Position numbers and translations under genes: made by a program. From a virus (taxonomy: Duplodnaviria; Heunggongvirae; Uroviricota; Caudoviricetes), in the IMG/VR virus record IMGVR_UViG_2778261128_000006: DNA of 22,569 nt; one strand, 5' to 3'. Positions 1 to 21,635 of this stretch are shown one piece after another. The notes under the pieces are model-generated. The model was not told the origin of the DNA and made no database searches. It saw only the letters and a program-made list of their open reading frames with translations. Within the stretch, counting starts at the first letter, position 1. Each line of letters begins with the position of its first letter.

Positions 1-1095
1 TCACACTTCTAGCGTTGCGAGGGGGTTGAATCTCAGAGCCGTCTCAAGATGATCGGGTGCTAAATGGGCATAGCGCATAGTCATTTTTATATCGTGATGT
101 CCGAGGATTTTTTGCAAAGCAAGGATATTTCCACCCGACATCATGAAGTGCGCCGCAAACGTATGGCGCAGAACGTGTGTCAGTTGACCGCGAGGGAGCA
201 CGATAGACGTTTTTTCCATCACGGATAAAAATTGAAAATAGCAGTCTGTAAAGAAATTGAACCCATCAAGCGCCATGATCTCTTCGTAAAGCTCTTTACT
301 GATAGGGATGCTTCTGTTTTTCTTCCCCTTCGTTCTTACAAAGGTAATTCGGTATTTGGTCACTTGCGAGCGGGTAAGATTTATTGCTTCTCGCCAGCGT
401 GCGCCTGTGCTTAGGCATATCTTGACTACCAGTGCCAGAATTGGGTCCTGACGTTTGCAATCAGCCAGCAGTTCAACAATCTGCTCATGGGTAAGCCATG
501 CCATCTCTTTTTCTGCGATGGTGAATTTTCGCATGTTCTCCAGTGGGTTCGGATACGACCATTCGCCCAGGCGGGATAGTTCGCTAAAAACACTACTTAG
601 ATAGCTTTGCTCCAGGTTAATGGTGACCGGGCTTGCTCCTTTCTTCCATTTCTCGCTGAAGTAGATCTCACCTGTCAGGCGTTTATCTCGATAGTGGGCA
701 AACATTTTAGAGGTTAGATCAGTTGCAAGGGGATTGCCCAGAGCGTCAACCATCAACAGCAGTTTGTCATAGACATGCTGCCCAGCTGTCAGAGATTTAC
801 CATGTAGTTTGAACCATAGCTCAATCACGTCTTTCAATGTCCGACGATCCACTGATTCGCCCAGCCAGGGCTTTGCTTCGGTTTCTTCCATCGTGTGACG
901 CTCAAAAGCCAGAGCTTCGCCTTTGGTGGCGAATTGTTTACGCACACGACGTCCACTACGTCCGGCGGGGTAACATTCGCAAAGCCATTTTCCTGTGGTG
1001 AGTTTTCGTACTGCCATAAAAAATGCCCTCCAGTAGAGAGCATTTTTACTGTATGTATAACCAGTGTCAATGTATGAAATCCTGCGACCATACAT
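1..1095 (-). CDS. int: Tyrosine site-specific integrase (phage integrase family)
   Basis: 364-aa ORF on minus strand; C-terminal catalytic region with conserved R...HxxR...Y-type residues (HTFAAHFMMSGG, RYAHL); sits at prophage edge next to the repressor as in P2/186. Stop codon at bases 1-3. Confidence 0.9.
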   Translation of the reverse strand: MYGRRISYIDTGYTYSKNALYWRAFFMAVRKLTTGKWLCECYPAGRSGRRVRKQFATKGEALAFERHTMEETEAKPWLGESVDRRTLKDVIELWFKLHGKSLTAGQHVYDKLLLMVDALGNPLATDLTSKMFAHYRDKRLTGEIYFSEKWKKGASPVTINLEQSYLSSVFSELSRLGEWSYPNPLENMRKFTIAEKEMAWLTHEQIVELLADCKRQDPILALVVKICLSTGARWREAINLTRSQVTKYRITFVRTKGKKNRSIPISKELYEEIMALDGFNFFTDCYFQFLSVMEKTSIVLPRGQLTHVLRHTFAAHFMMSGGNILALQKILGHHDIKMTMRYAHLAPDHLETALRFNPLATLEV

Positions 1096-1203
1096 CTCAC
1101 TGAAGCCATAATGAAGTTAGCTATTTTTTGCTATGTGAGTATGTGACTTTTGCGGTTAGCCTGCGGCTCATTGTTATATTAGGCGCAGATATAAAAGCAA
1201 AAT

Positions 1204-1395
1204 TTATCGCGAGTTTTTAGTACAGATTTTTTTTGATTTACTAATAGTTCCATCATTGCAAACGAACTTTCCATCGGAGGTACAGTGAGAGACACCTCCC
1301 TTTTTCCCAGAACAAGGATAATTTTTAGCATAGGTAGTTAGTGGGTTTAATAACAAAGAGCATGATAAAACCACAAAAAATACCTTACCAAGCAT
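1204..1395 (-). CDS. Small secreted protein, hypothetical (signal peptide plus about 40-aa basic mature peptide with 4 Cys)
   Basis: 63-aa ORF; hydrophobic N-terminus [16 protein letters not shown]...TYA then [37 protein letters not shown]; lies between int and cI in same orientation. Real-gene status not proven. Confidence 0.5.
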
Positions 1396-1410
1396 AGTTT
1401 CCTCCCGGTA

Positions 1411-1986
1411 TTACCTAACGTACTTAATTGTTAAACTTATAATTTTCCCAATTATTTCAACATCTTCTATCTTGCACTCGAAGGCTCTATTTCCACCCTC
1501 GACGAAGATTCTTCCACCGGGTAAACGAGTAATGTCACGGATCGTTATTTCGCCATCAATACTTATTACCCATTTACCATCACGTATATCATCAAATTCC
1601 TTATCACAAATAAATTCAGAATTATTATCTGTGATTACAAAAAGATTCTTGAATGCCGACGGTAGAAATTCTCTATCGAAAATATAAAAACCGTCTTCAC
1701 ACAAGGCCCCATCAGATAATACATATTTAGCAACTTCCATAGTATTTGTATTACCTGAAGTTTGCTTTGAACCATGCCCGGTTGTGAGCCAATTAAGCGA
1801 GGTGCCTGTTTCAAGGGCGCACTGGATTACCCATTCTGCTGGGAATGAGTCACGCATGTAGCGTGTGGCGAGTGTACTTTTAGAGATTCCTAAATGATCG
1901 CACAACGCCTGTCGAGTCTTGAATCCATAAGCTTCTACCATGCGCTCTATAGCGCCTCGTCCGCCTTTCTCCAAATTCATGGTCAC
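1411..1986 (-). CDS. cI: Phage 186-type CI immunity repressor (N-terminal HTH, C-terminal oligomerisation domain)
   Basis: 191 aa, about the length of 186 CI as I recall it; motifs EAYGF, CALETG..L.WLTTG, RLPGG...V.GG..FEC resemble 186 CI from memory; divergent from rightward early operon. Confidence 0.85.
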   Translation of the reverse strand: MTMNLEKGGRGAIERMVEAYGFKTRQALCDHLGISKSTLATRYMRDSFPAEWVIQCALETGTSLNWLTTGHGSKQTSGNTNTMEVAKYVLSDGALCEDGFYIFDREFLPSAFKNLFVITDNNSEFICDKEFDDIRDGKWVISIDGEITIRDITRLPGGRIFVEGGNRAFECKIEDVEIIGKIISLTIKYVR

Positions 1987-2105: not shown

Positions 2106-2327
2106 ATGAGACCTAACATTTCAATCACTCTTACCACCCCTCATGTGACTATTGAACGCTATAGCGAGCTGACAGGGCTATCCATCGATACCATCAATGA
2201 CATGTTGGCTGATGGACGCCTTATCCGTCACCGACTGCGCAAAGATAAAAAACGCGAAAAAGTGATGATCAACATAGCAGCAATGACCGTTGATGCGCTT
2301 TCAGAATGCAATCTAAACCTTAATTAG
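2106..2327 (+). CDS. Apl/Cox-like small early regulator (putative excisionase / Cro-like HTH protein)
   Basis: 73-aa ORF first in the rightward operon, position equivalent to 186 apl / P2 cox; assignment is positional, not motif-based. Confidence 0.5.
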
Positions 2328-2359
2328 TTCGATTCTGAAATACATCAGAGGCATTGACC

Positions 2360-2869
2360 ATGTTTGATTACCAAGTTTCCAAACATCCACATTTTGATGA
2401 AGCCTGTCGTGCATTCGCATTGCGCCACAACCTGGTGCAACTGGCAGAACGTGCTGGCATGAATGTGCAGATTCTGCGGAACAAGTTGAACCCAGCGCAA
2501 CCTCATTTATTAACCGCACCAGAAATCTGGCTGCTTACCGATCTGACTGAAGATTCAACGCTGGTAGATGGTTTTCTGGCTCAGATTCACTGCCTGCCAT
2601 GCGTACCGATTAATGAGGTGGCAAAAGAGAAACTGCCACATTACGTCATGAGTGCAACCGCAGAGATCGGGCGTGTTGCTGCAGGTGCGGTATCTGGCGA
2701 TGTAAAAACCAGTGCAGGTCGTCGTGATGCTATCAGCAGCATTAACTCTGTAACACGACTGATGGCGTTGGCTGCTGTTTCATTGCAGGCCCGTTTACAG
2801 GCTAACCCTGCGATGGCGAGTGCAGTTGATACCGTGACTGGCCTCGGTGCTTCATTCGGTTTGCTGTGA
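2360..2869 (+). CDS. cII: CII-like phage regulatory protein
   Basis: 169 aa from ATG at 2360 (the track ORF starts earlier at a TTG), about the length of 186 CII as I recall it; position after apl; RBS-like AGAGG upstream. Confidence 0.7.
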
Positions 2870-2876
2870 GGTGCTT

Positions 2877-3077
2877 ATGCTGACGAAAGAACCATCATTT
2901 GCATCGCTGCTGGTAAAGCAAAGCCCGGCAATGCACTACGGTCACGGCTGGATCATGGGTGAGGATGGAAAACGCTGGCATCCGTGCCGTTCACAAGATG
3001 AATTGCTGGCAGAACTATCTACGAAAAAACGGGGGAACAAATGGCTATTGAAGGCGCTGCGGCGACTGTTCCATTAA
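2877..3077 (+). CDS. Hypothetical small early protein
   Basis: ATG at 2877 inside track ORF 2847-3077; tightly packed in early operon. Confidence 0.45.
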   Translation: MLTKEPSFASLLVKQSPAMHYGHGWIMGEDGKRWHPCRSQDELLAELSTKKRGNKWLLKALRRLFH

Positions 3078-3382
3078 GACCCGGTGAACGCCTGAATGGA
3101 CTTAATCATATTGCGGAGTTAAGGGCGAAAGTTTTTGGTTTGAATATTGAGTCAGAGCTTGAGCGGTTTATTAAAGATATGCGTGATCCACGGGATATCA
3201 ATAATGAACAAAATAAACGGGCACTGGCTGCCATATTCTTTATGGCAAAAATTCCAGCTGAACGTCATAGCATCAGCATTAATGAGCTGACCACTGACGA
3301 AAAGCGGGAGTTGATTAAAGCAATGAATCATTTTCGTGCAGTGGTGAGCTTATTTCCCAGACGGCTAACCATGCCGAATTAA
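3041..3382 (+). CDS. Hypothetical early protein (113 aa)
   Basis: ORF in early operon; overlaps previous gene end as is typical for phage operons. Confidence 0.5.
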   Translation: MAIEGAAATVPLRPGERLNGLNHIAELRAKVFGLNIESELERFIKDMRDPRDINNEQNKRALAAIFFMAKIPAERHSISINELTTDEKRELIKAMNHFRAVVSLFPRRLTMPN

Positions 3383-3910: not shown

Positions 3911-4764
3911 GCACCATCCTGAAATGGGCGGGTAATAAAACCGCCATTATGTCCGAACTGAAAAAATACCTTCCTGCTGGCCCGCGACTGGTTGAACCTT
4001 TCGCGGGTTCTTGTGCTGTGATGATGGCGACGGATTACCCCAGCTATCTGGTTGCGGATATTAATCCTGATTTAATCAACCTCTATAAAAAGATTGCCGC
4101 TGATTGCGAAGCGTTTATATCTCGTGCCAAAGTTTTATTTGAGGAAGCAAACAGTGAGCTGGCTTATTACAACATAAGACAGGAGTTTAATTACTCAACT
4201 GAAATTACTGATTTCATGAAGGCGATATATTTCCTGTATCTCAATCGTCACGGTTACCGTGGTTTATGTCGCTATAACAAGAGCGGGTATTTCAACATTC
4301 CCTACGGTAATTATAAAAATCCGTATTTCCCTGAAAAAGAAATTCGCGCATTTGCAGAGAAAGCCCAGCGGGCAACGTTTATCTGCGCGAGCTTTGATGA
4401 AACGCTGGCGATGCTGCAGGTGGGGGATGTGGTGTATTGCGATCCGCCGTATGACGGTACGTTTTCCGGCTATCACACTGATGGTTTCACTGAAGATGAC
4501 CAGTATCACCTGGCATCCATTCTTGAACATCGGTCATCAGAAGGACATCCGGTCATTGTTTCTAACAATGACACATCCCTGATTCGTTCGCTGTATCGCA
4601 ATTTTACTCACCACTATATCAAGGCAAAACGCAGCATCGGCGTGTCAGCTGGCGAGGGTAAATCTGCAACAGAAATCATTGCTGTTTCCGGGCCGAGCTG
4701 CTGGTTGGGATTTGATCCTTCGCGTGGCGTGGATAGTTCTGCCGTGTACGGAGTGTGTGTATGA
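3907..4764 (+). CDS. dam: DNA N6-adenine methyltransferase (Dam-like, D12 class)
   Basis: N-terminal KWAGNK...FAGS AdoMet-binding motif and catalytic DPPY motif ([10 protein letters not shown]); ATG at 3907 after GGAGG. Confidence 0.85.
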
Positions 4765-7175
4765 GTCATGACGATATGAACTATTGCAGCGGCTTTAACG
4801 AGGCCGCCGCAGCATTTTCATGGAACGGCTCGAAAAAGGCCATTAACCCTTATCTGGACCCGGCGGAAGTTGCGCCGGAGTCTGCACTTTCAAACCTGAT
4901 CACTCTGTACGCTGCCGATAACGAGCAGGAACAACTGCGCCGCGAGGCACTGAGTGAGCAGGTCTGGGAGCGTTATTTCTTTAATGAATCCCGTGATCCT
5001 GTCCAGCGCGAAATGGAGCAGGATAAGCTCATTAGCCGGGCAAAGCTGGCGCATGAGCAGCAGCGTTTTAATCCGGACATGGTCATTCTGGCGGACGTAA
5101 ACGCCCAGCCTTCCCATATCAGCAAGCCGCTGATGCAACGTATTGAATACTTCAGCAGCCTGGGCAGGCCAAAGGCTTATTCCCGCTATTTGCGTGAGAC
5201 GATTAAGCCATGTCTGGAGCGACTGGATTGTGTACGTGACAGTCAGCTATCTGTTTCTTTCCGTTTTATGGCAAGCCATCAAGGGCTGGAGGGTCTGCTG
5301 ATCCTGCCTGAAATGAGCCAGGATCAGGTGAAACGCCTGTCCACCCTGGTAGCAGCGCATATGAGCATGTGTCTTGAGGACGCTTGTGGTGATTTGTATG
5401 CCACCGATGACGTTAAGCCAGAAGAAATCCGCAAGACATGGGAAAAGGTGGCAGCGGAAACCCTGCGTCTGGATGTTATCCCGCCTGCGTTTGAGAAACT
5501 TCGTCGGAAAATAAACCGCCGCAAACCAGTGCTCTATGAACTCATCCCGGGTTCGCTGGCGCGTATGTTGTGTGCCGACTGGTGGTATCGGAAATTATGG
5601 AAGATGCGTTGCGAATGGCGGGAAGAGCAGTTGCGTGCTGTCTGCCTGGTCAGCAAAAAAGCATCCCCCTATGTCAGCTATGAAGCCGTGATGCATAAAC
5701 GTGAGCAGCGCCGTAAGTCGCTGGAGTTTTTTCGTTCTCATGAACTGGTGAACGAAGACGGCGACACGCTGGATATGGAAGATGTGGTAAACGCCAGCAG
5801 CAGCAACCCGGCGCATCGCCGCAATGAGATGATGGCCTGTGTTAAAGGTCTGGAGCTTATCGCGGAAATGCGCAGTGACTGTGCCGTTTTCTACACTATC
5901 ACCTGTCCGTCGCGTTTCCATTCCACGCTCAATAACGGCAGACCAAACCCGACCTGGACAAACGCGACGGTAAGACAAAGTAGCGATTATCTGGTCGGCA
6001 TGTTTGCTGCATTTCGTAAGGCTATGCATAAAGCCGAGTTGCGCTGGTATGGCGTGCGGGTAGCTGAGCCGCATCATGACGGTACTGTGCACTGGCATCT
6101 CATGTGTTTCATGCGTAAAAAAGACCGCCGCGCCATCACTGCATTACTGCGTAAGTTTGCCATCCGTGAAGACCGCGAGGAGCTGGGCAATAACACGGGA
6201 CCACGCTTTAAGTCTGAGCTGATAAACCCGCGCAAAGGTACGCCAACAAGCTATATCGCGAAATACATCAGTAAGAACATTGACGGGCGTGGTCTGGCTG
6301 GGGAGATCAGCAAGGAAACGGGTAAATCCCTGCGTGATAACGCTGAATACGTTAATGCCTGGGCGTCTCTGCATCGTGTTCAGCAATTCCGCTTCTTTGG
6401 CATTCCGGGGCGTCAGGCTTACCGTGAACTGCGATTGCTGGCTGGTCAGGCGGCAAGGCAACAGGGTGACAAAAAAGCAGGTGCGCCGGTACTGGATAAC
6501 CCGCGTCTTGATGCAATCCTGGCTGCTGCTGATGCTGGTTGTTTTGCCACCTACATCATGAAGCAGGGCGGCGTACTGGTTCCCCGCAAATATCACCTCA
6601 TCAGAACTGCTTATGAAATCAACGAAGAACCGACCGCATATGGCGATCACGGTATTCGTATTTATGGCATCTGGTCACCCATTGCAGAGGGCAAGATCTG
6701 CACTCATGCGGTGAAGTGGAAAATGGTTCGTAAGGCCGTTGACGTTCAGGAGGCGGCAGCCGACCAGGGCGCTTGCGCCCCTTGGACTCGTGGCAATAAC
6801 TGTCCCCTTGCTGAAAATTTGAACCAACAAGGGAAAGACAAATCAGCTGATGGGGACTCCAGAACGGATATTACCCGTATGAATGACAAGGAGTTGCACA
6901 ATTACCTGCACAGTATGAGCAAAAAAGAGCGCCGGGAACTGGCTGCAAGGTTACGCCAGGTGAAACCGAAACGGCGTAAAGACTACAAACAGCGAATTAC
7001 AGACCATCAGCGACAGCAGCTCGTCTATGAACTGAAGTCCAGGGGATTTGATGGCAGCGAGAAAGAAGTCGATTTGCTCCTTCGCGGCGGCAGTATTCCG
7101 TCAGGAGCAGGCCTGCGTATCTTCTATCGGAACCAGCGTCTGAAGGAAGATGATAAGTGGCGGAACCTGTATTAA
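4755..7175 (+). CDS. A: P2 gpA-type replication initiation endonuclease
   Basis: About 800-aa ORF at the position of gene A in P2/186; rolling-circle initiator-like region around [10 protein letters not shown] with downstream tyrosines (YIAKYISK); start may be ATG 4755 or 4761. Confidence 0.85.
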
Positions 7176-8760: not shown

Positions 8761-9684
8761 ATGAATAAAAAATTTACCGATGAGCAGCAACAACAGCTTA
8801 TAGGACATCTCACAAAGAAAGGCTTCTATCGAGGAGCTAATATTAAAATAACCATTTTTCTATGTGGTGGTGACGTTGCTAATCATCAATCTTGGCGTCA
8901 TCAATTATCACAATTTTTAGCAAAGTTCAGTGATGTTGATATATTTTATCCAGAAGATCTATTTGATGATCTTTTGGCTGGTCAAGGGCAGCATAGCCTT
9001 TTAAGTTTAGAAAATATTCTGGCTGAAGCTGTCGATGTAATAATTTTATTTCCTGAAAGTCCGGGGTCTTTCACAGAGCTTGGTGCGTTCTCTAATAATG
9101 AAAACTTAAGGAGAAAGTTGATTTGCATTCAAGATGCAAAATTTAAATCAAAACGTAGCTTTATTAACTATGGTCCTGTTCGCCTGTTGCGTAAGTTTAA
9201 TTCAAAATCTGTTTTGCGTTGTAGTTCAAATGAACTAAAAGAAATGTGTGATTCATCTATTGATGTTGCCAGAAAATTACGATTATATAAAAAATTAATG
9301 GCATCTATTAAGAAGGTTAGGAAAGAAAATAAAGTATCAAAAGATATTGGAAATATATTATACGCAGAGCGGTTTCTATTGCCTTGTATCTATTTACTGG
9401 ATAGTGTCAACTACCGCACACTGTGTGAACTAGCTTTTAAAGCGATAAAGCAAGATGATGTTTTATCTAAAATTATTGTTAGATCCGTTGTTTCTCGTCT
9501 AATAAATGAACGAAAAATACTTCAAATGACTGATGGTTATCAGGTCACTGCTTTGGGGGCTAGCTATGTTAGGAGCGTCTTTGATAGAAAGACACTTGAC
9601 CGATTGCGGCTTGAGATTATGAATTTTGAAAACCGTAGAAAATCAACATTTAACTATGATAAGATTCCGTATGCGCACCCTTAG
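8761..9684 (+). CDS. Retron effector, nucleoside 2-deoxyribosyltransferase-like (NDT) protein with C-terminal basic domain
   Basis: 307-aa AT-rich ORF directly upstream of msr-msd and RT; Rossmann-like N-terminal region (KITIFLCGG ... VIILFPESPGSFTELG); its 3' end overlaps the a1 repeat; matches the Retron-Eco1 effector as I recall it. Confidence 0.8.
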   Translation: MNKKFTDEQQQQLIGHLTKKGFYRGANIKITIFLCGGDVANHQSWRHQLSQFLAKFSDVDIFYPEDLFDDLLAGQGQHSLLSLENILAEAVDVIILFPESPGSFTELGAFSNNENLRRKLICIQDAKFKSKRSFINYGPVRLLRKFNSKSVLRCSSNELKEMCDSSIDVARKLRLYKKLMASIKKVRKENKVSKDIGNILYAERFLLPCIYLLDSVNYRTLCELAFKAIKQDDVLSKIIVRSVVSRLINERKILQMTDGYQVTALGASYVRSVFDRKTLDRLRLEIMNFENRRKSTFNYDKIPYAHP

Positions 9685-9840
9685 CGAGAGGTTTATCATT
9701 AAGGTCAACCTCTGGATGTTGTTTCGGCATCCTGCATTGAATCTGAGTTACTGTCTGTTTTCCTTGTTGGAACGGAGAGCATCGCCTGATGCTCTCCGAG
9801 CCAACCAGGAAACCCGTTTTTTCTGACGTAAGGGTGCGCA
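9672..9840 (+). ncRNA. msr-msd: Retron msr-msd non-coding RNA (Ec86/Eco1-type) flanked by a1/a2 inverted repeats
   Basis: a1 TGCGCACCCTTA at 9672-9683 and a2 TAAGGGTGCGCA at 9829-9840 are perfect inverted repeats; long msd hairpin 9760-9811 (24-bp arms around GCCT loop); sequence matches the Ec86 ncRNA as I remember it from retron editing constructs. Confidence 0.85.
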
Positions 9841-9846
9841 ACTTTC

Positions 9847-10809
9847 ATGAAATCCGCTGAATATTTGAACACTTTTAGATTGAGAAATCTCGGCCTACCT
9901 GTCATGAACAATTTGCATGACATGTCTAAGGCGACTCGCATATCTGTTGAAACACTTCGGTTGTTAATCTATACAGCTGATTTTCGCTATAGGATCTACA
10001 CTGTAGAAAAGAAAGGCCCAGAGAAGAGAATGAGAACCATTTACCAACCTTCTCGAGAACTTAAAGCCTTACAAGGATGGGTTCTACGTAACATTTTAGA
10101 TAAACTGTCGTCATCTCCTTTTTCTATTGGATTTGAAAAGCACCAATCTATTTTGAATAATGCTACCCCGCATATTGGGGCAAACTTTATACTGAATATT
10201 GATTTGGAGGATTTTTTCCCAAGTTTAACTGCTAACAAAGTTTTTGGAGTGTTCCATTCTCTTGGTTATAATCGACTAATATCTTCAGTTTTGACAAAAA
10301 TATGTTGTTATAAAAATCTGCTACCACAAGGTGCTCCATCATCACCTAAATTAGCTAATCTAATATGTTCTAAACTTGATTATCGTATTCAGGGTTATGC
10401 AGGTAGTCGGGGCTTGATATATACGAGATATGCCGATGATCTCACCTTATCTGCACAGTCTATGAAAAAGGTTGTTAAAGCACGTGATTTTTTATTTTCT
10501 ATAATCCCAAGTGAAGGATTGGTTATTAACTCAAAAAAAACTTGTATTAGTGGGCCTCGTAGTCAGAGGAAAGTTACAGGTTTAGTTATTTCACAAGAGA
10601 AAGTTGGGATAGGTAGAGAAAAATATAAAGAAATTAGAGCAAAGATACATCATATATTTTGCGGTAAGTCTTCTGAGATAGAACACGTTAGGGGATGGTT
10701 GTCATTTATTTTAAGTGTGGATTCAAAAAGCCATAGGAGATTAATAACTTATATTAGCAAATTAGAAAAAAAATATGGAAAGAACCCTTTAAATAAAGCG
10801 AAGACCTAA
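9847..10809 (+). CDS. ret: Retron reverse transcriptase (Ec86/Eco1-type, 320 aa)
   Basis: RT motifs including YADD (RYADDLTLS) and retron-specific VTG (RKVTGLVI); length and sequence match Ec86 RT from memory. Confidence 0.95.
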   Translation: MKSAEYLNTFRLRNLGLPVMNNLHDMSKATRISVETLRLLIYTADFRYRIYTVEKKGPEKRMRTIYQPSRELKALQGWVLRNILDKLSSSPFSIGFEKHQSILNNATPHIGANFILNIDLEDFFPSLTANKVFGVFHSLGYNRLISSVLTKICCYKNLLPQGAPSSPKLANLICSKLDYRIQGYAGSRGLIYTRYADDLTLSAQSMKKVVKARDFLFSIIPSEGLVINSKKTCISGPRSQRKVTGLVISQEKVGIGREKYKEIRAKIHHIFCGKSSEIEHVRGWLSFILSVDSKSHRRLITYISKLEKKYGKNPLNKAKT

Positions 10810-19714: not shown

Positions 19715-19792
19715 CGCTGCCGCCATTTTGTCGCCATCGTTAAAAAACAGTGCTTCTAACATCATGATTTTAAAGAGCATAAATTTCAGGCA

Positions 19793-19837
19793 ACAAAAAA
19801 CCCATCAACCTTGAACCGAAATGGCGGGGTTGATGGG
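19793..19837 (-). terminator. Rho-independent terminator (minus strand), probably host ybjL terminator near the prophage right boundary
   Basis: CCCATCAACC ... GGTTGATGGG 10-bp stem, followed on the minus strand by TTTTTTGTTG. Confidence 0.45.
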
Positions 19838-19949
19838 CTCCACAAAATGGGGACATCAAAGAAAAGCAGTGGCACTAATTAAGACTGATGCCCTGCGGAA
19901 AAGTTCTGCGGTTGTGCAAAAAAATTTCATTTTCAGGGCAACTTCAGTT

Positions 19950-21635
19950 TTATCCTAATCCTGGCCATACCATGACGATGATTGTCCCTGCCAGCGTCAG
20001 CAGGACGTTGGCGATTGCATAGGTGCCCGCATAGCCCAGCGCCGGGATGTTACTGCGAGCTGTATCACTGATGATCTCCATTGCCGGCGCGCAGGTACGT
20101 GCGCCCATCATTGCGCCGAACAACAGCGCGCGGTTCATTCGCAATACATAAGCACCGAACAAGAAACAGATAACCACGGGCACCAGACTGACAATCAATC
20201 CGGCAATCAACATCTGACCGCCAATCGCGCCCAGGCCGTTATTAATACCGCTACCGGCGCTCAGACCAACGCCTGCCATAAACACCATCAAGCCGAACTC
20301 TTTCACCATGCTTAATGCACCCTGCGGAATGTAACCGAAGGTCGGGTGGTTAGCACGCATAAAGCCCAGCATAATTCCGGCGAATAACAACCCGGCAGCG
20401 TTCCCCATGCCGAAACTGAATGTGCTGAACTGGAAGGTGATCATCCCGATCATCAGCCCAATAACAAAGAAGGCGCAGAATGCCAGCAGGTCAGTGACCT
20501 GGCTGTGAATCGAGATAAAGCCGATGCGATCGGCGATGGTTTTTACGCGGCGGGCATCGCCGCTGACTTGTAAAACGTCACCTTTGTTAAGCACGACGTT
20601 GTCATCTATCGGCATCTCAATCTGGCTACGAATGACGCGGTTAAGGAAGCAACCGTGATCGGTCAACTTCAGTTGTGCGAGACGTTTACCTACAGCGTTA
20701 TGGTTTTTAACGACCACTTCTTCAGTGACGATACGCATGTCGAGAAGGTCACGATCGAAAACTTCTTTACCGTTACGGAAGCTGGGATCGAGTCGGGCAT
20801 GGGCGTCGGGATAGCCTACCAACGCTATTTCATCGCCCATTTGTAGCACGGCATCACCGTCTGGATTTGCCAGAATCCCGTTACGTCGAATACGTTCAAT
20901 GTAGCAGCCGGTTTGTCGATAAATACCCAGTTCACGCAGATTTTTGCCGTCGGTCCAGGCCACCAGTTCCGGGCCGACGCGATAGGCGCGGATCACCGGT
21001 AAATAAACCTTACGGTTGGCATCAGTGTCCAGGCCACGTTCGCGGGCGATTTGCTGGGCGCTGGTCTGTAAGTCCTGATGCTGCAATTTCGGCAAGTAAC
21101 GCGCACCAACAATCAAACTCACCAGACCGATTAAATAGGTTAAGGCATACCCGAGGCTCAGATTATCCAGTGCCAGTGAGAGCTGCCTGCTTTCCATGCC
21201 GGAATGACGCAGTGTATCGCCAGCACCGACCAGAACCGGTGTCGACGTCATAGAGCCTGCTAACATACCGGCCGTCAGGCCAATATCCCAGCCAAACAGC
21301 TTACCTAACCCTAAGGCGATCACCAGCGCACTGCCAACCATCACCAGTGCTAACATTAGGTAATTTTTCCCATCGCGAAAAAAAATGGAAAAAAAGTTCG
21401 GTCCGGCTTCGACCCCGACGCAGAAAATAAACAGCATAAAGCCAAGATTAAGCGCATCGGTGTTAATGCTGAAATGTTGTTGGCCTAATAACAGCGATAC
21501 GACTAAAACGCCAATGGAATTACCCAGTTGGATCGAACCAAGTCGTAACTTTCCGAGACATAGCCCAAGCGCGAGGACCACAAATAATAACAGAATGTAA
21601 TTCCCATTTAACAATTCGGCGACGTTTATATTCAC
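19950..21635 (-). CDS. ybjL: Putative transport protein YbjL (AspT/YidE/YbjL family)
   Basis: 561-aa membrane protein with duplicated transporter domains and central cytoplasmic region; neighbourhood with ybjM and grxA as in E. coli. Confidence 0.85.

Follow-up and report, generated by a model that had tools for sequence, protein, structure and literature searches.

Lysogen-expressed accessory genes are known from several phages and include rexAB, bor and lom of lambda and old, tin and fun of P2, together with the envelope-level exclusion proteins T4 Sp, HK97 gp15, T5 Llp and phi80 Cor. In phage P2 itself, the integrase gene int and the repressor gene C are 69 bp apart and the gap is free of genes; in a 186-like Yersinia phage the repressor gene cI and int overlap by 1 nucleotide (nt), and cI stands directly next to int in several other 186-like records. 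The cargo hotspots described for P2 lie between gpA and gpQ and downstream of gpL, and a minor 'integrase-primase' class (8% of systems) covers the cI–int region; YdcA goes unmentioned in that study (PMC13586616). YdcA of Escherichia coli (b1419 type; NF007462, PF27300) is a small protein encoded on the chromosome between cybB and trg. One paper reports that E. coli W lacking ydcA is sensitive to 3-hydroxypropionate at 300 mM, and it also cites up-regulation of the gene under YdcI at pH 5 (PMC7642389). Here we report on a ydcA-like gene that lies between cI and int, in the lysogeny module of a P2/186-like E. coli prophage, at positions 1204–1395 of a 22,569-nt stretch of DNA (IMG/VR virus record IMGVR_UViG_2778261128_000006; "the window" denotes this whole stretch). 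Its product is a YdcA-family protein of the NF007463 (PRK10040 group) subtype, and the gene is real and under purifying selection.

The assignment rests on several independent models. On NCBIfam NF007463 the protein scored 116.1 bits over residues 5–63, which passes the family threshold of 93, and the same protein reached 68 bits on the K-12-type model NF007462. Furthermore, Pfam PF27300 ('YdcA') is precomputed on the cluster containing the exact window protein, and PHROG 6000, annotated as 'unknown function', was matched at 4.6e-34. Conserved columns were taken from alignments of 35, 70 and 150 sequences and yielded the core motif P-C-S-G-x-K-G-G-[VI]-x-x-C ... F-[VI]-C-x-[DN]-G-x-x-S-x-S-K-x-x-C, all conserved columns of which are present in the window protein; the invariant or near-invariant mature positions are P, C, S, G, K, G, G, C, F, C, G, S, S, K and C. 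Chromosomal YdcA likewise consists of a Sec-type leader followed by a domain of about 35 amino acids (aa), PCSGxKGG...FVCNDGxxSxSKKxC, with four cysteines. The prophage copy differs from it in belonging to a presumed lysogeny operon and in its longer and more basic C-terminal tail, and the window protein is 57% identical overall to K-12-type chromosomal E. coli YdcA. A preliminary description of the locus, made from the sequence, had tentatively likened the product to small periplasmic E. coli proteins of YdcA type, and the NCBIfam PRK10040 models, PF27300, the identity to K-12-type YdcA and the RefSeq name all bear this likeness out. An older Pfam copy lacking the YdcA model returned just a chance-level GULLO2-like match (E 0.068). 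The UniRef cluster name 'Conjugal transfer protein' was disregarded, as no conjugation context spoke for it. A literature search on 'YdcA' mostly retrieved an unrelated Bacillus rhomboid protease or gene lists, and a 'ydcA' of the gonococcal island was left aside. Both gene and family are thus already in the databases, the family without an assigned function.

The coding sequence (1204..1395, minus strand) comprises an ATG start, 63 codons and a TAA stop, and its product is identical to WP_001321204.1. Codons 1–23 (1327..1395, minus strand) encode a predicted Sec (signal peptidase I) signal peptide, with cleavage predicted after A23. By rule-based analysis this leader has an n-region with K4, a hydrophobic core at residues 5–16 (best 9-mer Kyte-Doolittle mean 2.72) and T-Y-A at –3 to –1, and an AlphaFold2 model predicts residues 3–14 to be helical. 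A signal-peptide-like pattern (basic N-terminus, hydrophobic core, small-x-small) was present in 34 of 34 intact sequences among 35 homologues, even though the leaders share just 17–43% identity; the –1 alanine is kept in at least 90% of the 35, and the remaining leader positions vary freely. From this three-part anatomy and the conserved –1 alanine we infer that the leader is a Sec signal peptide and that the product is exported. Codons 24–63 (1207..1326, minus strand) encode the mature 40-aa peptide, which constitutes the YdcA domain. It contains 8 Lys and 1 Arg versus 2 Asp, giving a net charge of +7 and a pI of 9.64, and four invariant cysteines (C28, C38, C46 and C58 of the precursor), which probably form two disulfides. 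The signal peptide and the lysine-rich, four-cysteine mature peptide had both been proposed in the preliminary description and both stand, the former as a rule-based and comparative prediction, with the addition of a fifth cysteine (C12) in the leader. Direct reading of the 15-nt spacer between cI and the ydcA-like gene (1396..1410, minus strand) revealed a Shine-Dalgarno sequence, GGGAGG (1401–1406), which ends 5 nt ahead of the ATG. Equivalent ribosome-binding sites (TAAGGAG/TAAGGAA) precede the homologues at three other prophage loci compared.

Conservation of the protein is concentrated in its mature part. When the window was compared with prophages of Escherichia, Klebsiella, Hafnia, Yersinia and Haemophilus, the mature part was 74–95% identical, while the adjacent cI was 35–70% and the leader 17–43% identical. 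Correspondingly, in the alignment of 35 homologues about 23 variable leader residues are followed by about 35 that are almost invariant. Nei-Gojobori counts for the mature core gave 8 synonymous and 0 non-synonymous changes relative to one E. coli allele, 3 and 0 relative to another, and 18 and 2 relative to a 70%-identical homologue. The gene is also common. Over bases 1000–2100 the window is 100% identical to the P2-like prophage that neighbours rcdA in BL21 and REL606, both E. coli B strains, and in some further strains. Of 5426 complete E. coli genomes, 852 match this segment at least in part, 654 (~12%) have the open reading frame (ORF) and 648 have this cI type. The exact 63-aa protein occurs on at least 1000 contigs, and its 90%-identity cluster comprises 355 member sequences. 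Together with the curated family threshold, these counts and the synonymous excess uphold the original call of a gene at this position. In BL21(DE3) the ydcA-like gene is 100% identical to that of the window, and the RefSeq coding sequence at the same place is WP_001321204.1, a 'hypothetical protein' that newer annotations name 'YdcA family protein'. A tblastn search of a phage-record collection found no enterobacterial phage record with the gene; its matches came from Haemophilus, Moraxella, Acinetobacter and Pseudomonas phages.

Comparison of the cI–int junction in related elements showed that the linkage to cI is retained across genera, with differing genes downstream. The order cI → YdcA → int was found in prophages of Yersinia and E. 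coli, and the order cI → YdcA → 443-aa KAP-family P-loop nucleoside triphosphatase → int in Escherichia and Klebsiella; a Hafnia prophage carries a 347-aa hypothetical protein between YdcA and int. Together with the Haemophilus phages HP2 and S2, described below, these loci confirm the conservation at the same position in related prophages on which the preliminary description had made its proposal depend. Phages with a near-identical Int (98.8–99.4% protein identity) carry different cargo at the junction, for instance vB_EcoM-813R9 has a 558-aa 'chromosome segregation ATPase' there and Klebsiella phage 4LV2017 a hypothetical protein of 349 aa, and the nucleotide homology of such same-int phages to the window ends at about 1075–1077. 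The presence of other cargo beside a near-identical Int and the break in homology thus indicate that the junction is a cargo site and that cI and the ydcA-like gene behave as one exchangeable module. The preliminary description had further stated that P2/186 phages have no gene between cI and int. This holds for P2 and for the 186-like Yersinia phage, but not in general, since in many 186-like prophages the junction is a site of variable cargo. As expected of a moron, the gene is a dispensable insertion that is absent from close relatives at the same position; the promoter and terminator of its own that a classical moron possesses were not found, as no above-chance promoter or terminator flanks the ORF in a scan of positions 900–2400.

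Among more distant phages, those of Haemophilus keep the linkage. In HP2 (NC_003315.1; P2-like, Hpunavirus), and also in S2, we found a 60-aa YdcA-family ORF (2920–3102, plus strand in HP2) that is not annotated in GenBank. It shares with the window ORF the strand and the position, immediately behind a 191-aa CI and ahead of int; it likewise has a predicted signal peptide, and its mature part is 74% identical. It differs in that its ATG and the cI stop codon have one base in common, the last of the stop codon, where the window has a 15-nt spacer, and in that orf1(S), which encodes 254 aa with a signal-peptide-like start, lies between it and int. An Aeromonas P2-like prophage encodes a 209-aa YdcA-domain protein just upstream of int. 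In the siphophages Mcat17 of Moraxella (3938–4117) and Ab11510-phi of Acinetobacter (3917–4102, plus strand), YdcA-family genes are flanked by head genes on one side and, on the other, by large genes that are annotated as tail genes or presumed to be such. Neither of these is near a repressor gene, and the Acinetobacter copy is unannotated. Such varied settings indicate that different temperate phages captured YdcA genes repeatedly. In a plasmid search, members of the family were also found in Acinetobacter and Rhizobium replicons.

In the window, cI, the ydcA-like ORF and int are all on the minus strand, and the Cox/Apl-like gene and cII are divergent. The 186-type CI repressor gene (1411..1986; RefSeq start 1980), presumably the first in a lysogenic operon, is supported by Pfam Phage_CI_repr (2.8e-33) and Phage_CI_C (8.7e-27) and named 'phage repressor protein CI' in RefSeq. 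The tyrosine integrase of the P2/186 family (1..1017, minus strand; 338 aa by the RefSeq start; Pfam Int_N and Phage_integrase) is 99.4% identical to Int of Escherichia phage vB_EcoM-813R9. Read from an ATG further upstream, at 1095, the int ORF would reach 364 aa and exceed the RefSeq gene, but the shorter start (1017) has a GGAGG site and agrees with phage integrases. On the plus strand, a Cox/Apl-like excisionase-repressor gene (2106..2327; PHROG 575, 6.1e-31), the first gene of the divergent lytic operon, is followed by a gene for a CII-like activator (Phage_CP76; 2354..2869; PF06892, 3.4e-42). The 186-nt spacer between the ydcA-like ORF and int (1018..1203, minus strand) is structured as RNA, with a predicted fold of –56.1 kcal/mol (z = –3.76 versus shuffled controls). 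A hairpin at its end (1018–1047) buries the int Shine-Dalgarno sequence and is followed by a U6 run, and a promoter-like TTGACA-17-AAAAAT site at 1070–1042 is not above chance; both fall in the stretch that other phages have together with int (homology to ~1077). The hairpin may limit int expression; the ORF is unaffected by it. In the promoter and terminator scan of 900–2400, counts were at chance level and no minus-strand terminator was predicted, none between cI and the ORF in particular. Lying 15 nt from cI, the ydcA-like ORF looks less like an autonomous unit than like part of an operon. Co-transcription with cI is the simplest reading, given the lack of a predicted terminator and of an above-chance promoter for the ORF, the spacing and the overlap in HP2, where pL is annotated upstream of cI; placement of the ORF in the lysogenic transcript, as the preliminary description had it, is therefore plausible. 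An Rfam scan of the whole window matched the host small RNA RybB and gave no match near the ORF.

By its size the prophage seems to be a remnant, shortened by deletion, of an insertion between rcdA and rybB: it occupies less than ~19.8 kb of the window compared with 30–35 kb in related P2/186-like phages. Host genes resume with RybB (19792–19870, 105 bits) and a ybjL-type Asp-Al_Ex/TrkA_C transporter (19950–21635). In the BL21(DE3) copy (NC_012971.2), cII and the replication gene A are adjoining pseudogene fragments (locus positions 5361–6806), which indicates an internal deletion; both genes are intact in the window. The cargo hotspot between gene A and the portal gene holds a retron (8761–10809, plus strand), whose reverse transcriptase (9847–10809; RVT_1 2.9e-25) follows a protein of 307 aa, named 'retron St85 family effector' by RefSeq in BL21(DE3). 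No msr/msd RNA for this retron was found by Rfam at the gathering threshold.

To place the peptide in its wider family, we turned to other contexts of the YdcA domain. An exhaustive profile search (E ≤ 0.001) returned 462 clusters at the 50% identity level. Most consist of 55–140-aa proteins with a leader and one YdcA domain, some have two or three domains in tandem, and the family median net charge is +4. Among 150 family representatives, the second domains observed were Endonuclease_NS (2), SNase (1), PLDc_2 (1), the periplasmic VasL domain of the type VI secretion system (T6SS; 1), the PBCV basic adaptor (2), DUF4124 (2) and TerY_C (1, weak at E 6e-4); further fusions to Endonuclease_NS and SNase appeared in a second search. 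Moreover, a subfamily of 130–148-aa YdcA-domain proteins is encoded within T6SS clusters of four locus types (Winslowiella, Salmonella arizonae, Enterobacter and others), where its neighbours are TssE, TssJ, VasL or PAAR/Tle3-Tli3. These Enterobacterales proteins share with the prophage peptide an N-terminal leader and YdcA domain, which align closely, at 45–53% identity over ~90% of the peptide. In contrast to it, they continue through a basic linker into a conserved, Cys-containing C-terminal PTCAP-LYMA-KPGFTHLPIC module and have T6SS gene neighbours. The subfamily appears to be a T6SS accessory protein that has not been described before.

One solved protein, Dis2 (Lpg0823), an outer-membrane-cap subunit of L. 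pneumophila's Dot/Icm apparatus, which is a type IV secretion system (T4SS), was matched by the YdcA family profile and was also the top Foldseek match. Cryo-electron microscopy has shown Dis2 to be a two-lobed protein with five disulfides near the outer membrane (PMC8486379; PDB 7MUC/7MUD). The first sequence match to Dis2 in the PDB (E 3e-5) leaned on the signal peptide, and profiles of the mature part alone ranked Dis2 at E 0.098 and 0.036, no better than low-density-lipoprotein-receptor repeats and lysozyme. The link was retained because of a profile–profile comparison: hhalign of the mature-only YdcA profile with 31 Dis2 orthologues gave a probability of 94% and E 1.4e-7 over the Cys-rich lobe. 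In addition, PF27300 matched 3 of 36 Dis2 orthologues, and one orthologue reached 2e-7 on NF007463, in an alignment that takes in some of that orthologue's signal peptide. Dis2 has a signal peptide, as is predicted for the prophage protein, and then a Cys-rich lobe in which the shared motif CC-x2-MGG[VI]-x-YC-x5-G-R-L-VCNNG-x2-S lies; we regard homology between the YdcA domain and this lobe as probable rather than proven. As for location, Dis2 is periplasmic and pinned by disulfides (PMC8486379), and the prophage peptide is predicted to be periplasmic. Dis2 differs from the peptide in its two lobes, five disulfides and length of ~108 aa, in not being markedly basic in the aligned part and in its membership of the T4SS complex. 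As the window protein is a single domain with four cysteines and the window holds no T4SS genes, the prophage peptide is at most a relative of Dis2 and not a member of its group. Dis2 itself, reported as species-specific and without structural relatives, looks from its sequence like a tandem duplication of the YdcA domain.

Taken together, these contexts point, tentatively, to a Sec-exported periplasmic docking mini-protein that is made in lysogens and has a role in lysogenic conversion at the level of the envelope; we give this possible reading preference while holding it open to revision. In this scheme the lysogenic promoter would drive the ORF together with cI, and translation would start from the ORF's own strong Shine-Dalgarno sequence, so that lysogens would produce the peptide all the time. 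Sec would then export the precursor of 63 aa, with cleavage after Ala23, and periplasmic oxidation of the 40-residue, +7 product would give a compact YdcA domain with two disulfides. This domain could then act as a small docking module near the outer membrane that binds an envelope structure or another polyanionic partner. A docking or adaptor role is suggested because it is the denominator shared by a T4SS cap subunit, T6SS accessory proteins and the leaders of secreted nucleases. The prophage might benefit through interference with the entry of foreign DNA or with injection machines, or through better envelope fitness of its host. Like the lysogen-expressed accessory genes introduced above, the ydcA-like gene is a non-essential prophage gene with expected expression in lysogens and predicted targeting of its product to the envelope; it differs from them in that its product has no sequence relationship to theirs and in having no promoter or terminator of its own in the scan. 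A bolder version, which we regard as doubtful, would see in the YdcA domain an unrecognised, outer-membrane-proximal periplasmic docking module common to Dis2, T6SS accessory proteins and secreted nucleases, of which P2/186/HP-type prophages captured a stand-alone copy and tied it to the repressor gene, where it would act in lysogens as an envelope-level barrier to incoming DNA or contractile injection machines (phages, tailocins, T6SS).

Several observations weigh against the docking interpretation. Dis2 is dispensable for T4SS assembly and function (PMC12716638), the window contains neither T4SS nor T6SS genes, and none of the known defence-system models of PADLOC matched the protein at E ≤ 10. 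The simple promoter scan of 900–2400 did not recover a lysogenic promoter for cI, and the operon structure rests on spacing and analogy; the hairpin and U-run before int could end or attenuate the transcript, though with no effect on ydcA itself. Finally, the nuclease fusions fit a nucleic-acid-binding role equally well. Under that explanation, which we think unlikely, the basic peptide would bind the DNA backbone and trap or obstruct DNA on its way through the periplasm, for instance superinfecting or transforming DNA, and thereby exclude superinfection or guard the prophage from replacement by recombination. It draws on the position of the YdcA domain N-terminal to three unrelated secreted nuclease folds, in 4 of the ~10 representative clusters that have any second Pfam domain, on the positive charge of the peptide (+7) and of the family (median +4), and on the co-occurrence with the basic PBCV adaptor domain. 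The phage-record matches in Haemophilus, Moraxella, Acinetobacter and Pseudomonas phages are likewise in its favour, several of these hosts being naturally transformable. Yet nuclease accessory domains can equally serve localisation, the YdcA domain bears no resemblance to known DNA-binding folds, and neither the T6SS-cluster and VasL contexts nor the position of Dis2 as a protein-bound subunit near the outer membrane would be explained. An effect confined to host fitness, with the prophage copy adding to or substituting for chromosomal ydcA in envelope or acid/organic-acid stress tolerance and no part in phage conflict, would agree with the 57% identity to core-genome YdcA and with the 3-hydroxypropionate sensitivity and pH 5 up-regulation mentioned above. 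That phenotype is a single report, however, whose authors call the role unclear (PMC7642389), and since E. coli already has chromosomal ydcA, a second copy needs a reason. The prophage type moreover forms its own curated subfamily (116 bits on NF007463 versus 68 on the K-12-type model), and it has stayed tightly and specifically linked to cI across wide evolutionary distances, which speaks for a role that serves the phage; we accordingly rate this explanation, too, as a minority one.

Its small size, predicted signal peptide and place beside the repressor in the lysis–lysogeny module might also suggest a released signal of the arbitrium kind, and as a cationic, disulfide-stabilised peptide it resembles many antimicrobial peptides and might be a bacteriocin-like weapon. 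Both readings are highly improbable and were rejected. The mature part is 74–95% identical across prophages whose cI is 35–70% identical, and remains 74–91% identical where cI is just 35%; a near-invariant mature peptide across differing immunity is the opposite of the variation that a communication peptide needs. Furthermore, a near-identical domain is the product of a core gene of the chromosome, other proteins carry the domain as a module attached covalently, and no receptor-like, immunity or outer-membrane export gene lies alongside in the junction loci examined. Scarcely credible at all is that the ORF arose by chance or is a decaying remnant of a defective prophage, or that the protein is a lipoprotein processed at Cys12. 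The prophage is indeed defective in some hosts, as the cII and gene A pseudogenes of BL21(DE3) illustrate, and V-L-S-C at residues 9–12 is loosely lipobox-like. But the curated hidden Markov model threshold, the extreme synonymous excess and the cross-genus conservation exclude a chance ORF, and the lipoprotein reading was rejected because Cys12 is missing from the Hafnia, Yersinia, Haemophilus and K-12 homologues and the 11 residues ahead of it are too short for a lipoprotein leader.

The gene itself is thus ordinary, a RefSeq-annotated, conserved hypothetical gene for a small, predictedly secreted protein of a curated family. What is new is modest and consists of a linkage to cI that is tight and spans genera, the copies in HP2/S2 and the Acinetobacter phage that lack annotation, the T6SS and nuclease contexts and the probable relationship to Dis2. 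The value of the gene lies in its setting: roughly one complete E. coli genome in eight has it, the B/BL21 laboratory lineage among them, the mature part is conserved to a much greater degree than the preceding repressor, and the gene marks the cI–int junction as a cargo site of 186-like prophages. The Dis2, T6SS and nuclease contexts and the repeated capture by phages provide concrete and cheap hypotheses for the function of both the prophage gene and chromosomal ydcA.

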